This document shows positions 2,931 through 14,682 of a stretch of DNA of 64,000 nt, piece after piece. The translations under genes were made by a program, and so were the position numbers. Under the pieces are notes generated by a model that did no database searches, was not told the DNA's origin, and saw only the letters and a list, made by a program, of their open reading frames with translations. The stretch comes from Candidatus Saccharimonadales bacterium (GTDB lineage Bacteria; Patescibacteriota; Saccharimonadia; Saccharimonadales; DATKHC01). Positions within the stretch are counted from its first letter, which is position 1. The number at the start of each line of letters is the position of its first letter. Location of the stretch: the NCBI GenBank assembly GCA_035510465.1, contig DATKHC010000001.1, positions 6,799 through 70,798 of the forward strand. The letters run 5' to 3'.

Positions 2931-3980
2931 TTGGCATGCAATAATGACTTTATGAATATCTCAAAGAACGTTTCGCTTAAAAATTATTCGACTATGAAAC
3001 TTGGCGGTAACGCAAGTTACGTAGTTGAGATTGAAAACAAGGACGATCTAGTTCAAGCGTTTGATTTCGCAAAAACTAACAATTTGAAAACAATTGCTGT
3101 TGGGACAGGCAGTAACTTGGTTTGGCGAGACGAAGGTTTCGATGGCTTAATTTTGGTATGTAAAACGAAACGCTACGATGTTTTTCGAGAGGATGACACT
3201 AACTTCTATATCACAGTGGGATCAGGTGAAATTTGGGATGATATCGTAGCCCGAACAACCTCCATTAACTTAAGTGGCATCGAGCAACTGTCTTTGATAC
3301 CAGGTACAGCTGGAGCTGCTCCAGTTCAGAACGTTGGTGCATATGGTCAAGAACTGTCTAATGTTTTAGTTAGCGTGGAAGTTTTCGATCAAAAGATAGG
3401 TGAACTCGTTAATATCCGTTCAAGTGAATGTGGCTTTGGATATCGAACTAGTCGTTTTAAAACCACCGACAAAGGACGGTTTTTCATTACCAATATTGTT
3501 CTTCATTTAAATAAATCAAACCCTCAACCACCTTATTATTCCGCTCTCAAACAATACTTTGAAGAGCATAAAATAAGTGATATAACCCCCACTGTTGTCC
3601 GTGACGCCGTAATTTCGATCAGAAAATCAAAATTACCAGACGTTTCTAAGGTTGCTAATTGCGGGTCTTTTTTTACTAATCCAATAATTGATGGGTCAAA
3701 GCTTGAAATACTTCGTTCATCCTTCCCGGCAGTCCCTTATTGGGAAAATGGAGACAATAAATATAAAATATCTGCTGCCTGGCTGATCGAACAGCTTAAC
3801 TTCAAAGACTATCACGATAAAGAGACAGGCATGGCCACTTGGCCCACCCAACCACTTGTTTTTGTTAACGAACATGCCCAGTCTACTAGTGACTTACTAA
3901 AATTCGCCCAAAAAGTAAGTGGTGCTGTGGCAGCTAGGTTTGACATTCAACTTGCTCAGGAACCCGAACTGCTACCCTAA
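2931..3980 (+). CDS. murB: UDP-N-acetylenolpyruvoylglucosamine reductase
   Basis: FAD-binding MurB-like N-terminus (LKNYSTMKLGGNASY, GTGSNLV) and MurB C-terminal domain. The track start is TTG at 2931; the in-frame ATG at 2952 is the more likely start. Confidence 0.85.
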   Translation: MACNNDFMNISKNVSLKNYSTMKLGGNASYVVEIENKDDLVQAFDFAKTNNLKTIAVGTGSNLVWRDEGFDGLILVCKTKRYDVFREDDTNFYITVGSGEIWDDIVARTTSINLSGIEQLSLIPGTAGAAPVQNVGAYGQELSNVLVSVEVFDQKIGELVNIRSSECGFGYRTSRFKTTDKGRFFITNIVLHLNKSNPQPPYYSALKQYFEEHKISDITPTVVRDAVISIRKSKLPDVSKVANCGSFFTNPIIDGSKLEILRSSFPAVPYWENGDNKYKISAAWLIEQLNFKDYHDKETGMATWPTQPLVFVNEHAQSTSDLLKFAQKVSGAVAARFDIQLAQEPELLP

Positions 3981-5383: not shown

Positions 5384-6901
5384 ATGCAAGCTAACGAAAA
5401 AATTGGCCAACTTATTTACCAAATAAGGCAAGAGCGAGGCTTAACTCAATCCGAGTTCGCCAGCAAACTTGGCACCAGCCAATCAGCCGTTAACCGAATT
5501 GAGCATGGCCGACAAAACTTAAGCCTTGATACTCTAGCTAGAATTAGCGACGTCTTAAATAAACAGCTAATTAGCTTAGAAGGTACCGCTGTTAATCTTC
5601 GTATTGAGGGAGGTCGTGAGCTACACGGAAGCGTGGCACTAAAAACTTCCAAGAACTCTGCTGTGGCACTACTTTGCGCAAGTTTACTAAATCACGGGGT
5701 AACAAGATTCAAGGCCTTTCCAAGAATTGAAGAAGTCTTTAGGATCATCGAAGTACTAGAAAGTATTGGTGTATCTGTTAAATGGCTACCAGGTAACGAT
5801 GTTGAGATCCGACGTCCAGCTAAATTGGATCTTACTCATCTGGACGCAAAAGCCGCCCGTCAAACCCGGAGTGTTTTAATGCTAATTGGGCCTCTCATTC
5901 ATGAGGCGAATAACTTTAAAATTCCTTACGCTGGCGGTTGCAAACTAGGACGAAGAACCGTTGCGCCTCACTTGTATGCCCTGGAGGAATTTGGGGTAAA
6001 TATAGTTGCAACCAGTGGTCACTACAACGTTCAGGTTCACAGAAAAAACCCAGAGCCATTTGTTATGTACCAAACTAGTAATACCGCTACTAATAATGTG
6101 CTGATGGCAGCCGCTTCAACTGCAGCCAAAACCACAGTCCAAGCCGTTAGCGGGGATTACATGGTACAAGATCTTTGTTTCTTCTTACAAAAGTTAGGAG
6201 TTAAGATTGACGGGATAGGCAGCCATTTTCTAGAAATTACTGGGGTACCAAAAATTAAAAAGAATGTTACTTTCGCCCCTTCAGAGGACCCCATTGAGGC
6301 TATGTTTTTCATAGCTGCGGCCGTCGCAACTAATTCTAAAATCACGGTTGAGAGAGTCCCTTATAAATGGATAGGTCTTGAGCTTCTAAAACTGGATAAG
6401 ATGGGCTTAAAGCTCAAACTATCTAAGCCTTACAAGGCAAATAATGGTATTGTCGATTTAACTGATATAACTGTTGGAAAACACAATGGTGAGCTAAAAG
6501 CACTGGAGGATAAAATCGAGCCAAATCTTTATCCCGGCATAAACCCCGATAATCTTCCCTACTTCGTTCCAATCGCTGCTATGTGCAAAGGCAGAACCCA
6601 GATCCAAGACTGGATGTATGAGAACCGGGCAATCTATTTCACTGAAATGACAAAAATCGGCATGCAAGTTGAACTAGCCGATCCGCATAGATTGTTTATT
6701 GACGGTCCAACTCGTTTTTCGAGAGGGGATGTAGTCTGTCCACCCGCCCTAAGACCAGCCAGTTTGCTACTAATAGGTATGTTAGCGGCTAGGGGTGTAT
6801 CAACCCTTAGAAGTGTATACACAATAAACCGTGGATATGAAGATTTGGCCGAAAGACTAAATTCTATCGGTGCTCAAATAACTGTTTTACACGAGCTCTA
6901 G
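5384..6901 (+). CDS. murA: XRE-type HTH domain fused to UDP-N-acetylglucosamine 1-carboxyvinyltransferase
   Basis: Residues 1-65 are an XRE HTH (GLTQSEFASKLGTSQSAVNRIEHG). The rest aligns with MurA: KTSKNSAV (Lys22 region), GGCKLGRR (Cys115 loop), YPGINPD (Asp305 region), and the C-terminal INRGYE. Confidence 0.85.
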   Translation: MQANEKIGQLIYQIRQERGLTQSEFASKLGTSQSAVNRIEHGRQNLSLDTLARISDVLNKQLISLEGTAVNLRIEGGRELHGSVALKTSKNSAVALLCASLLNHGVTRFKAFPRIEEVFRIIEVLESIGVSVKWLPGNDVEIRRPAKLDLTHLDAKAARQTRSVLMLIGPLIHEANNFKIPYAGGCKLGRRTVAPHLYALEEFGVNIVATSGHYNVQVHRKNPEPFVMYQTSNTATNNVLMAAASTAAKTTVQAVSGDYMVQDLCFFLQKLGVKIDGIGSHFLEITGVPKIKKNVTFAPSEDPIEAMFFIAAAVATNSKITVERVPYKWIGLELLKLDKMGLKLKLSKPYKANNGIVDLTDITVGKHNGELKALEDKIEPNLYPGINPDNLPYFVPIAAMCKGRTQIQDWMYENRAIYFTEMTKIGMQVELADPHRLFIDGPTRFSRGDVVCPPALRPASLLLIGMLAARGVSTLRSVYTINRGYEDLAERLNSIGAQITVLHEL

Positions 6902-6914
6902 TTTTAGATTTTAA

Positions 6915-6964
6915 CGCTTTCGTCCTTTTGGACTCATCAGCCTGAACATACATTCAGAGAGCAA
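6915..6964 (-). ncRNA. hammerhead ribozyme, type III topology (stem III open)
   Basis: Minus strand reads UGCUC^UCUGAA-UGUAUG-UUCAGG-CUGAUGA-GUCC-AAAA-GGAC-GAAA-GCG. Both catalytic cores are intact. Stem I is 6 bp and stem II 4 bp, both loop-closed. Stem III is 4 bp. The cleavage triplet is CUC, with C17 at 6959. Confidence 0.8.
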
Positions 6965-7052
6965 AGACAAGCAGAAAAAGTTGGTAAAGGAACAACCCAG
7001 GGGGCAGGATTGGGTTTTTCGCTTTAGTCAGCTCAATCTGCTGTCCTTGCTC
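6959..7052 (-). other. long imperfect RNA hairpin at the 3' end of the islet-1 transcript
   Basis: GAGCAAGGACAGCAGA (7052-7037) pairs with UCUGCUUGUCUUUGCUC (6975-6959). That gives 16 bp with one bulge and one G-U that is valid only on the minus strand. The inner hairpin is AACCCA/UGGGUU. Confidence 0.55.
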
Positions 7053-7095
7053 AGTACATGTCCTTCCGATAGGTTCTTTGTCTGTTGTTACCTCC

Positions 7096-7578
7096 TTAGG
7101 TAGTAGGCAAGGGACGGATTCCCTCGGGCCTGAAACTTGGCCTTGAGATGGCACGTCCTCGTTTTACGGTTCTTCCCCCGTGAGATCTCGTCGTCTTCCC
7201 GCGAGACGGTGTTGTTGGTTGCGTTGCCGCCTGATTGTTCTGTTGTTCCCCAAGCCTCCGAAGAAGCTCGTTTGCAGCAGATTGGCCATAGGCCTTGATG
7301 AAGCCCGTGAGGTGGATTTTTGTGCCTTCAAACCCGATATGGAGTTTGATTTTCCCCTTCCGGACCACTGTTACGCGGCCGCTGTGCTGCTTTGGTACGT
7401 AGCGCAGAGCTTCACCGGGTGTCATTTTCTTGAGCTCTCTTGGTACGAGGCGTCTCCTCACGTCATGCTGTCTGGTCGCGATGTCGGTCGCAATCAGAAT
7501 GGCATTCGTTCGGTGCCTTACAACTGGCTCTGGAATCTCCTTTGCGTCGGGCTCGATTTCCGATAACGTTGTCGTCAC
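7096..7578 (-). CDS. orphan hypothetical protein (160 aa, basic disordered C-terminal tail) in GC-richer islet 1
   Basis: GTG start preceded by GGGGAGAAGGG. The composition is protein-like, unlike the antisense ORF. No family recognised. Confidence 0.45.
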   Translation of the reverse strand: MTTTLSEIEPDAKEIPEPVVRHRTNAILIATDIATRQHDVRRRLVPRELKKMTPGEALRYVPKQHSGRVTVVRKGKIKLHIGFEGTKIHLTGFIKAYGQSAANELLRRLGEQQNNQAATQPTTPSRGKTTRSHGGRTVKRGRAISRPSFRPEGIRPLPTT

Positions 7579-7615
7579 GGTTTTGCCCTTCTCCCCTACC
7601 TAGGCTAACGGTGCC

Positions 7616-7702
7616 ATAGCTAAACTAAAGCTATCTGTGTTTCCTTTACACAGTGAGGTGAGGGGGAAGCCCGCAATTACTTGCGAACTTTCTTCTCACC
7701 TC
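7616..7702 (-). promoter_or_regulatory. structured 5' leader of the islet-1 ORF (three consecutive hairpins)
   Basis: Hairpins at 7655-7702 (GAGGUGAG/CUCACCUC enclosing CGCAA-GUAA-UUGCG with a GNRA loop), 7635-7653 (CUGUGU/ACACAG) and 7616-7634 (AUAGCU/AGCUAU). Confidence 0.4.
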
Positions 7703-7791
7703 ATGATTTCTGCTTGTCAAAATACATCTTTGGATACACTAGCAATATCTTCAAAACTTGAAAAATTTGTGTCTCAACAAAGAATTTAGTT

Positions 7792-7820
7792 AATCTACTC
7801 CCAACGTGCTTGTGTGTCAA
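7792..7820 (-). promoter_or_regulatory. putative promoter for the islet-1 transcript
   Basis: Minus strand reads TTGACA, 17 nt, TAGATT, immediately downstream of tRNA-His. Confidence 0.35.
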
Positions 7821-13738: not shown

Positions 13739-13815
13739 TGGTCGGGGTGGCCGGATTTGGACCGGCGACCTCAGCGTCCCGAACGCTGCGCGCTACCAAG
13801 CTGCGCCACACCCCG
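13739..13815 (-). tRNA. tRNA-Pro (anticodon CGG)
   Basis: Acceptor CGGGGTG/CACCCCG, anticodon arm CAGCG-TTCGGGA-CGCTG, CCA. Confidence 0.9.
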
Positions 13816-13860: not shown

Positions 13861-13882
13861 AAAAAAGCCATGGTCGCATGGC
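13861..13882 (-). terminator. rho-independent terminator (usable in both directions)
   Basis: GCCATG-GTCG-CATGGC hairpin flanked by an A-run on one side and a T-run on the other. Confidence 0.55.
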
Positions 13883-13985
13883 TTGGTTTTCGTCTTTTTT
13901 GGATCTAATTTTAAGTTATAAGATTTAACTTGAAGTTAAAACCGAAAAGATTAAGCGTTTCTTAGACTGATATTTATTTAACTAA

Positions 13986-14070
13986 CGAAAAAGTACGACA
14001 AGCAGACAGGGAGAAGAAAGGACAGTGTTGCCCAAAAAATTGTCCTTGCTATCTCCCCGCCTGTTTGTCG
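13986..14070 (-). terminator. very long imperfect hairpin plus U-tract at the 3' end of the islet-2 ORF
   Basis: CGACAAACAGGCGGGGAGAUAGCAAGGACA pairs with UGUCCUUUCUUCUCCCUGUCUGCUUGUCG. The G-U pairs are valid only on the minus strand. It is followed by UACUUUUUCG. Confidence 0.5.
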
Positions 14071-14088: not shown

Positions 14089-14364
14089 TTAATTGCTAAT
14101 GAAAGCAAGTCTCGGATCGACAATGATGTCGCCACGCGGTGTTCTTATAAACTTTGGGTCTTCTTGTTGGGTCGGCACAAATGGTACTGATTGCAAGATT
14201 GTGACTGTGTCACAGTGTTTGCAACGACCTACTAGCCGACACTCCATTTCCCCACCAAGGTGAGGTACGTCGTAACCAGGACAGTTGTGCTCGTCCTCTT
14301 CTGTGCAGAAAAGAACGACGTGATCAACCGAATGTACTACCTTGCAACCGAAGCAATCGGGCAT
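14089..14364 (-). CDS. orphan Cys-rich small protein (91 aa) in islet 2
   Basis: Eight Cys including CFGC and CKHC pairs, which looks like a zinc ribbon. AAAGGA lies upstream of the ATG. No family recognised. Confidence 0.45.
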   Translation of the reverse strand: MPDCFGCKVVHSVDHVVLFCTEEDEHNCPGYDVPHLGGEMECRLVGRCKHCDTVTILQSVPFVPTQQEDPKFIRTPRGDIIVDPRLAFISN

Positions 14365-14508
14365 TGGACTTTTACATCCTTTCTTGGCTATATCCCCAGA
14401 AGTTTTATATAGATAACAAGGAAAAGAACTAGGAATGTTCCTCTAGCTTTTCCCAAAATCTGCTTGTCAATGTTCATCGGAGCAAAGAAGCTCTACAACG
14501 AAGCTAAT

Positions 14509-14537
14509 ATGATAACACGATCTGTAATAAATGTCAA
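14509..14537 (-). promoter_or_regulatory. putative promoter for the islet-2 transcript
   Basis: Minus strand reads TTGACA, 17 nt, TATCAT, downstream of tRNA-Pro(TGG). Confidence 0.4.
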
Positions 14538-14605: not shown

Positions 14606-14682
14606 TGGTCGGGGTGAGAGGACTTGAACCTCCGACCTCCGCGTCCCAAACGCGGCGCGCTAGCCAACTGCGCCACACCCCG
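14606..14682 (-). tRNA. tRNA-Pro (anticodon TGG)
   Basis: Acceptor CGGGGTG/CACCCCG, anticodon arm CCGCG-TTTGGGA-CGCGG, CCA. Confidence 0.9.

Follow-up and report, generated by a model that had tools for sequence, protein, structure and literature searches.

The window analysed here is a stretch of 64,000 nucleotides from the chromosome of a Candidatus Saccharimonadales bacterium (Saccharibacteria; GenBank assembly GCA_035510465.1, contig DATKHC010000001.1, positions 6,799 to 70,798), with a G+C content of about 41%, ten tRNA genes and housekeeping open reading frames (ORFs). It contains two islets, both read on the minus strand, in each of which an ORF is bracketed by an inverted pair of the same 10-mer, GACAAGCAGA. 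Four exact copies are present: 6966-6975 and 13997-14006 on the plus strand, and 7709-7718 and 14459-14468 on the minus strand. These are the positions given by an earlier inspection of the letters alone (the sequence-only reading), which had also judged that such a 10-mer should occur far less than once in 64 kb. Dinucleotide-preserving shuffles agree, with an expectation of 0.09 copies and none of 100 shuffles reaching four, and variants with one mismatch occur at background level only. The four-copy pattern is neither chance nor a DNA repeat. Comparison with relatives supports the interpretation that the 10-mers belong to an RNA helix, of which they form the near-invariant core (UUGACAAG.../...CUUGUCA), and that this helix joins the 5′ and 3′ untranslated regions (UTRs) of a single-gene cassette. 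The complementarity of the islet 1 boxes extends to 12 nt (GACAAGCAGAAA/TTTCTGCTTGTC), and the 12-mer TTGACAAGCAGA is common to the 5′ copies of both islets, which when compared with each other have in common only the boxes and a few short motifs. A third cassette was searched for in the window and not found.

Islet 1 begins with a strong sigma-70-like promoter (TTGACA, 17 nt, TAGATT; -35 at 7820, -10 at 7792). About 3 nt past the predicted transcription start lies a hairpin, P1 (CUUUGUUGAG...UCCAAAG; 7728-7782), which emerges from reading the sequence and from the minimum-free-energy fold and is found at the same place in relatives. The 5′ box UUGACAAGCAGAAA (7707-7720), recognised by the 10-mer match and by covariation across the family, includes UUGACAAGCAGA and provides the 5′ strand of the long-range helix. 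It is followed by a second hairpin, P2 (UGAGGUGAGAAG...CCCCCUCACCUCA; 7654-7703; from sequence and fold), of which one arm is Shine-Dalgarno-like and the other anti-Shine-Dalgarno-like; relatives have analogous P2 hairpins. The cargo ORF (7096-7578) starts with GTG and encodes 160 amino acids. Downstream of it lies GGACAGCAGA (7037-7046), an imperfect copy of the 5′ box that is able to pair with the 3′ box and is used in this way by the minimum-free-energy fold; we refer to such copies as local decoys. The 3′ box UUUCUGCUUGUC (6966-6977; 10-mer match) supplies the 3′ strand of the long-range helix, and a type III hammerhead ribozyme (6912-6966) comes directly after it. The hammerhead core CUGAUGAG...CGAAA is intact, with U6960 and C6959 before stem I. 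Stem I measures 7 bp, stem II 4 bp and the weak stem III about 4 bp, and cleavage is predicted after C6959. The match to the Rfam family RF00008 scores 28.2 bits (E-value 0.0011 for a 1-kb stretch). As a side observation, the tail after the hammerhead (GUUAAAAU; 6908-6915) complements AUUUUGAC (7716-7723) over 8 bp, overlapping the start of the 5′ box. This pairing is used in the full-length minimum-free-energy fold of islet 1 and was not seen in relatives.

The order of islet 2 is similar up to the 3′ box. Its strong, TG-extended sigma-70-like promoter (TTGACA, 17 nt, TATCAT; -35 at 14537, -10 at 14509) is followed by a P1 hairpin (GCUUCGUUGUAGAGC...GCUCCGAUGAAC; 14472-14504), the 5′ box UUGACAAGCAGA (14459-14470) and a further hairpin directly after the box (14420-14453), both hairpins being apparent from sequence and fold. 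The cargo ORF (14089-14364) encodes a Cys-rich protein of 91 amino acids. The local decoy CGACAAACAGG (14060-14070; sequence and fold) is the 5′ arm of a long imperfect 3′ hairpin, and the 3′ box UCUGCUUGUC (13997-14006) is again identified by the 10-mer match. In both islets, two observations of the sequence-only reading are borne out: each 5′ copy of the 10-mer lies in a leader downstream of a predicted promoter, and each 3′ copy closes an imperfect local hairpin whose opposite arm is a degenerate copy of the box. The proposal of a hammerhead stood for islet 1 and failed for islet 2, where only a decayed relic is left (AUUAGAUCCAAAAAAGACGAAAACC; about 13885-13909), followed by an intrinsic terminator (13865-13884). 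The relic was found through a 16-nt match (87.5%) to the stem II/GAAA segment of islet 1; it still shows stem II and the GAAA segment but no longer has the catalytic CUGAUGA, and Rfam gives no ribozyme match at islet 2 at E-values up to 10. The terminator takes the place of the ribozyme as 3′-end-forming element, an arrangement that recurs in relatives without a hammerhead. An AU-rich hairpin lies between the 3′ box and the relic. The ribozymes of this genome look decayed, the weak stem III of islet 1 included, while both box pairs are perfect.

For neither of the two window ORFs did Pfam, PHROGs or a search of 5.8 billion sequences return homologues beyond identical copies (islet 1) or the own record (islet 2), and the analysis therefore proceeded via DNA patterns. 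A scan of one genome per species for the 3′ box, 10-40 nt and CUGAUGAG gave about 20 loci in Saccharibacteria metagenome-assembled genomes (MAGs) among about 100 chance matches. The consensus of these loci reads TCTGCTTGTC-AT-GTTCGC-TC-C-stem I-CTGATGAG-stem II-CGAAAGCGAAC. The 5′ box, which was not in the query, occurs as (T)TTGACAAGCAGA 520-950 nt upstream wherever upstream sequence sufficed. Since this pattern requires the 3′ box and fixes it by construction, metagenomes were scanned with a ribozyme-only pattern containing neither box, which yielded at least 120 loci. The stretch of 10-20 nt that precedes stem III differs among these loci, and the best upstream complementary partner differs along with it. 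Viral contigs gave chance-type matches only with the genome pattern and no match with the ribozyme-only pattern. The core features of the hammerhead (CUGANGA...GAAA, the A15.1-U16.1 pair and a non-G at the cleavage site) are present in islet 1 and in about 140 relatives; islet 2, with its relic, is without the conserved core. Family members abound in Saccharibacteria; one carrier, L076, is a MAG labelled Candidatus Nanosynbacter, a genus of which members are reported to have been cultured.

Members of this family are cassettes with a common order. Each has its own sigma-70-type promoter, followed by P1 at the transcript start, the 5′ box, leader structures with the ribosome-binding site, and a variable cargo ORF. 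After the ORF come a weak, G·U-rich decoy and the 3′ box, and then either a type III hammerhead 0-2 nt further on or, in some members such as islet 2, an intrinsic terminator. Cassettes may also be arranged in tandem: L291 carries three units in a row, each with promoter, P1, 5′ box, P2, ORF, 3′ box and hammerhead. ORFs from the interiors of 112 elements form at least 35 unrelated clusters. Some clusters correspond to DUF2807 or to PHROG families annotated as "secreted protein", and most match nothing. The largest cluster (e.g., L107, L015, L089 and L060) encodes a membrane protein with EExxxR...FxxxH motifs that is CPBP-like by eye and has no Pfam match. One cluster, found in the first cassette of L291 (1235-1630) and in L045 and L215, passes the Pfam threshold for Tad4 with 27 bits (cutoff 25). 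Tad4 is an inhibitor of type I Thoeris; an anti-defence-like gene resides here in a hammerhead-bounded cassette of a non-viral genome. A cross-tabulation of flanks against cargo is confounded by the tandem arrays and serves for qualitative use only.

The 5′ box of the family is usually UUGACAAGCAGA, and the two strands of the helix lie 316-1165 nt apart. Both strands differ together in many members, for instance in L283 (TGACAAGCAAACATA and TATGTTTGCTTGTCA), L269 (TGACATGTAGACACA and TGTGTTTACATGTCA), L185 (TGACAAGTGA and TCACTTGTCA), L204 (GATAAG.. and ..CTTATC), L248 (AACAAATAGAGAGC and GCTCTCTATTTGT), L245 (GTATATATTCTCG and CGAGAATATATAC) and L208 (TTGACAAGCAGAAGAA and TTCTTCTGCTTGTCAG; 16 bp). 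A hidden Markov model of the leader ends at "TGAC" and is thus blind to the variable part of the box; in 86 of 91 elements, the position that it gives for the 5′ strand is no more than 12 nt away from the site of best complementarity. An ungapped search for the best helix with shuffled controls had a high background from allowed G·U pairs and was replaced by pair counts in an alignment; a count in a fixed register failed through 1-nt anchor shifts and bulges. The alignment was made with MAFFT without structural information from 53 distinct chimeras, each consisting of the 5′ segment joined to the 3′ segment with the ribozyme. The proposed structure pairs 89.9% of its cells, compared to 28-45% with a slid partner. 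Changes on both sides are seen in 23 of the 32 pairs, and none of 500 shuffles reaches any of the observed measures. For the long-range helix alone, 10 of 15 pairs change on both sides, as in columns 18-57 (CG 48, UA 5), 22-53 (CG 37, UA 12, UG 3), 24-51 (GC 37, GU 6, AU 4) and 25-50 (AU 30, GC 7). The hammerhead covaries in the same alignment, with both sides changed in six of six pairs of stem I, three of four of stem II and four of seven of stem III, and 89-100% of cells paired. In the bulge-free core of the alignment, 13 cells are G·U and two are other mismatches, an excess that indicates RNA pairing on the sense strand and is unexpected for a DNA repeat. When gaps are allowed, the median duplex comprises 22 bp (range 15-28) at -27 kcal/mol, and in 82 of 96 distinct elements 0-2 nt separate it from stem III. 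A reading of the TTGACA within the 5′ box as a -35 element was rejected: no conserved -10 was seen at 16-18 nt in the sequences inspected, and the box covaries with the 3′ box.

At the margins of the family, the divergent members L245 (5765-6530), L214 and L248 have a complementary 5′/3′ pair beside the ribozyme with entirely different sequences, e.g., GUAUAUAUUCUCG/CGAGAAUAUAUAC, so the architecture does not require the UUGACAAG core. In a subgroup of six (L243, L259, L266, L272, L196 and L278), AAUCUUAGCUGUAU precedes stem III and no convincing upstream partner was found, the best helices being of 7-11 bp at inconsistent positions; these members may be without a closing helix or have a gapped one.

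The same family data bear on the possibility that the boxes act as DNA. The sequence-only reading had considered an invertible ORF cassette, and more broadly a recombinase could bind to the inverted core TTGACAAG/CTTGTCAA and either flip the cargo or swap it. Conserved frames do enclose highly diverse cargo, with the same frames carrying different cargos, the sequence of the repeat core is invariant, and serine recombinase-like ORFs were noted by eye, in two singleton flanks only. Nonetheless, all orientation data point the other way. All 1192 interior matches of at least 100 nt run in the same direction relative to leader and ribozyme, with no inverted case among them; in 97 of 112 elements, the sense strand holds a longer ORF than the antisense strand; two other contigs that carry islet 1 have it in the same orientation, and other assemblies of the organism show no inversion signal. 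The orientation of the cargo is fixed. Moreover, the mismatches are of the strand-specific G·U type, the decoy copies keep their pairing only via G·U, and the distal helix covaries freely and is bulged, unlike a protein-binding repeat. The flanks, as identified by eye, consist of housekeeping genes and hold no regular recombinase. A role as recombination sites is thus very improbable, and the inverton proposal fell with it.

Even less credible, and contradicted by the data, is that the boxes are the terminal inverted repeats of a miniature transposable element carrying an ORF, which had been suggested as well. An inverted 10-12-mer does bracket segments of about 0.5-0.75 kb at two places, both beside tRNA genes. 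However, conservation continues past both boxes, into the promoter and P1 upstream and the ribozyme downstream, and the interiors are unrelated, both between the two islets and across the family. The flanking dinucleotides are TT and TT at islet 1 and TT and GT at islet 2, in line with the absence of a target-site duplication already remarked upon. Nor is the association with tRNA genes general, most relatives not showing it. In the window, islet 1 follows tRNA-His (7902-7829, minus strand), which lies directly upstream of its promoter, and islet 2 sits between two tRNA-Pro genes (13739-13815 and 14606-14682), the latter of which, tRNA-Pro(UGG) on the minus strand, is upstream of its promoter.

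The imperfect local partner of the 3′ box is a family trait. In many subfamilies, the 3′ box is preceded at a distance of 40-90 nt by a G·U-rich version of the 5′ box, e.g., AUGGCGAGU/ACUUGUCAU and UGCGACGAGCGGGUCA/UGACCUGCUUGUCGCA. The median duplex energy is -24.4 kcal/mol for the long-range pairing and -17.0 kcal/mol for the local decoy, with -14.4 and -16.4 kcal/mol for control windows, and the long-range duplex beats the decoy in 59 of 76 elements. Islet 1 conforms to this, with -23.4 kcal/mol for the long-range and -17.5 kcal/mol for the local pairing, and in the full-length fold of islet 2 the box pairing appears in the centroid, where the 5′ box pairs with the 3′ box. In both islets, the local and the long-range state are predicted to be close alternatives. 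The remaining proposal of the sequence-only reading, an RNA panhandle against which an imperfect local hairpin competes, is supported by the covariation, the sense-strand G·U pairs and the stronger long-range duplex. Its second part, in which the panhandle governs the availability of hammerhead stem III, is weakened because the helix abuts stem III without overlapping it and persists in terminator cassettes, islet 2 among them.

That second part can be put as a ribozyme switch, in which exchange of the 3′ box between decoy and 5′ box decides whether stem III forms, so that cleavage would be gated by the state of the leader (translation or a ligand). Several details lend themselves to it. The helix ends 0-2 nt from stem III; the P1 3′ strand CGAAAGCGCAC resembles CGAAAGCGAAC of the ribozyme; the weak stem III of islet 1 might depend on stacking; and in the CPBP-like subfamily the 3′ box is closely preceded by GCGAAC, a mimic of the stem III 3′ strand that could pair with GUUCGC and keep it from the ribozyme. 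This mimic is, however, confined to that one subfamily. Neither partner of the 3′ box overlaps nucleotides of stem III, which leaves the ribozyme free to fold in both states, and the helix is conserved in cassettes that have no ribozyme. We consider such a switch unlikely.

The ribozyme-less relatives are informative for the role of the helix itself. L232, L277 and L180 keep the leader, the 5′ box and a complementary, covarying 3′ box, and an intrinsic terminator replaces the hammerhead. As the helix is kept in these three and in islet 2, it is not there solely to serve the ribozyme. The best explanation, which we regard as probable without being secure, is that a 5′-3′ closing helix frames self-contained single-gene cassettes and closes the ends of the mRNA beside a ribozyme or terminator. 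During transcription, the 3′ box would probably pair with the nearby decoy first and then switch to the 5′ box, its thermodynamically better partner; the resulting duplex, imperfect and about 22 bp long, could stack on stem III. The ribozyme would set the 3′ end about 10 nt beyond the duplex, and a terminator a few tens of nucleotides beyond it, which would separate the message from downstream RNA. In the mature mRNA, P1 would then contain the 5′ end and the 3′ end would lie close against the closing helix, and ends closed in this way may limit attack by exonucleases and 5′-end-dependent RNases and insulate each cassette. In the subfamily with CPBP-like cargo, the helix resumes past an internal loop as AGAGGU/ACCUCU, covering the Shine-Dalgarno sequence, and closure could thereby also mask the translation start signal. 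The helix with its covariation, the order of the cassette and the fixed orientation are demonstrated by the data; from sequence and predicted structure we infer that strands exchange during transcription, that the ribozyme cleaves in vivo and that the frame stabilises or insulates the message.

An identical structure could have the opposite consequence, namely cleavage in place of protection. In rRNA precursors and some phage mRNAs, excision is carried out by a double-strand-specific RNase, and the duplex might likewise be an RNase III-type substrate from which the cargo mRNA is excised, away from the P1 leader and from the 3′ ribozyme or terminator. A bulged duplex of about two helical turns (median 22 bp, range 15-28) that brackets the whole coding part would suit a processing stem, as would its persistence when a terminator replaces the ribozyme, and the near-invariant proximal base pairs could be recognition determinants. 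Cleavage at the stem would nevertheless leave the adjacent ribozyme redundant, and the conserved 5′-terminal P1 would be discarded. Processing of this kind is fairly unlikely.

Several observations weigh against the closing-helix explanation. The proximal 7-8 bp of the helix are almost invariant and do not covary, which hints at a further sequence-specific partner, either a protein or a third RNA. For islet 2 the calculation gives a small advantage to the local hairpin (-30.9 kcal/mol, compared to -27.8 kcal/mol for the long-range pairing), and the full-length minimum-free-energy folds of both islets use the local hairpin. When folded alone, the hammerhead of islet 1 forms stems I and II and not the stem III of about 4 bp. 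The family ribozymes score about 28 bits (28.2 in the window, 28.4-28.6 in L291), compared to a gathering score of 48.5 for RF00008. Finally, the relatives were ascertained through the ribozyme, and the share of ribozyme-less cassettes cannot be read from such a sample.

Additional leader elements occur in oral relatives. RAGATH-10 (RF03147) lies in their cassette leaders, between P2 and the ribosome-binding site, as in L291 at 2076-2162 and 2976-3057 (83 and 74 bits). The RAGATH class comprises RNAs associated with genes associated with twister and hammerhead ribozymes, and the matches in L291 mean that these loci had already been sampled by motif hunters. RAGATH-10 spans only an 82-nt leader segment, however, and includes neither the 5′ nor the 3′ box. 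In the window, no RAGATH-10 match reaches the gathering score, and around either islet none is found at E-values up to 10. The 5′ end of RAGATH-10, GAAACCUCAUCUU, is the 3′ strand of the P2 hairpin, and its outer stem pairs GGAUGAGG of the ribosome-binding site. Because GAAACCUCAUCUU is common to both, P2 and the outer stem are mutually exclusive around the Shine-Dalgarno sequence, and their alternation looks like a translational switch.

P1 of the oral relatives (L291:1975-2012 and 2869-2915) reads GCUUUCA-UUGACAAG-loop-CUUGUC-C-GAAAGCGCAC. The cores of the 5′ and 3′ boxes are each duplicated within it, together with a sequence that nearly matches the 3′ end of the ribozyme (CGAAAGCGAAC). This hairpin might act as a decoy or as a partner in strand exchange, or might be what is left of the end of an upstream cassette. 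Like the near-invariance of the core, the core copy inside this P1 is not explained by the helix model, and a protein partner may be involved. A bolder proposal, speculative and decidedly unlikely, would take the RNA frame (P1, 5′ box...3′ box and hammerhead) as the functional and evolutionary unit. The UUGACAAG/CUUGUCA helix and the P1 mimic would be read by a dedicated factor, and the processed, end-closed RNAs would be handled as units, with circularisation, packaging, export to the host bacterium or use as templates for cassette exchange as possible fates. The helix would then be more than an mRNA stabiliser.

Hammerheads bordering single genes are known from prophages. There, clustered hammerheads flank single variable genes such as ardA, and their proposed role is the cutting of transcripts into single-gene mRNAs (Perreault et al. 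2011, PMC3088659). As far as the relevant passages of that paper describe them, the prophage arrangement and the present one have in common that hammerheads border single genes of varying identity, that anti-defence genes are among the cargo (ardA there, a Tad4-like gene here) and that units occur in tandem (here in L291). In contrast, the units in Saccharibacteria have their own promoter and a conserved structured leader, stand among housekeeping genes and were not found in viral contigs. They also possess a covarying closing helix and a decoy, and the helix is not mentioned in those passages. The hammerhead-bounded arrangement is thus present in the family, and the window itself holds single units, one of them with an intact ribozyme. 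No literature linking hammerheads with Saccharibacteria or with bacteria of the candidate phyla radiation was found. The closing helix itself appears to be undescribed and, together with the decoy and its persistence across the swap of ribozyme and terminator, appears to add new features to a known arrangement.

Other known systems resemble parts of the frame. The ribozyme agrees with the type III hammerhead (RF00008) in its catalytic core, three stems, open stem III and predicted cleavage after UH, and differs in that the 5′ strand of stem III continues into a helix whose partner lies hundreds of nucleotides upstream. Martick and colleagues reportedly described, in 2008, a discontinuous hammerhead in rodent Clec2 3′ UTRs. 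That case also ties a 3′ UTR hammerhead to pairing between segments hundreds of nucleotides apart, but there the ribozyme itself is split, while here it is contiguous and only the adjoining helix is long-range. Long-range processing stems bracket rRNA precursors, and closure between the 5′ and 3′ UTRs of mRNAs is known. As in those cases, a duplex of about 20 bp across a long RNA would define or protect its ends; in the cassettes, however, the RNAs are small mRNAs with diverse cargo, and a ribozyme or terminator and a built-in decoy are added. In integron gene cassettes, too, single ORFs of diverse kinds occupy a recurring frame with an imperfect hairpin after each ORF, and some form arrays. 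Unlike those, the present cassettes each have a promoter, show no attC R/L box pattern and no attI, and have G·U-paired hairpins that speak for RNA rather than DNA; no integron integrase was seen by eye in the flanks.

Thousands of bacterial hammerheads are known, and their biological role is largely unexplained. In the cassettes, the ribozyme is an interchangeable module (ribozyme or terminator) of a transcript frame, which points to 3′-end formation and the insulation of single-gene messages and would give bacterial hammerheads a testable role in shaping mRNA ends. A covarying helix between 5′ and 3′ UTR with a weaker built-in decoy is a rare structure among bacterial RNAs and is open to probing and mutation. 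The cargo, with its Tad4-like, secreted, membrane and homologue-less products, may hold accessory functions for the epibiotic lifestyle. As a natural counterpart of synthetic ribozyme insulators, the frame may also find applied use.

Two minor observations concern the surroundings of the islets in the window. Between 7000 and 8000, the region of islet 1, the G+C content is 49%, compared to about 41% for the window, and the AT skew is strongly negative; these two properties are consistent with foreign or recently acquired cargo. Besides tRNAs, the neighbours of the islets include a P-type ATPase and similar ORFs and a fusion of a transcription regulator with a MurA-like protein. This fusion, encoded by the ORF at 5384-6901, is convergent on islet 1 and joins an HTH_3-type DNA-binding domain to an EPSP-synthase/MurA-like domain, according to the precomputed Pfam annotation of an identical contig.

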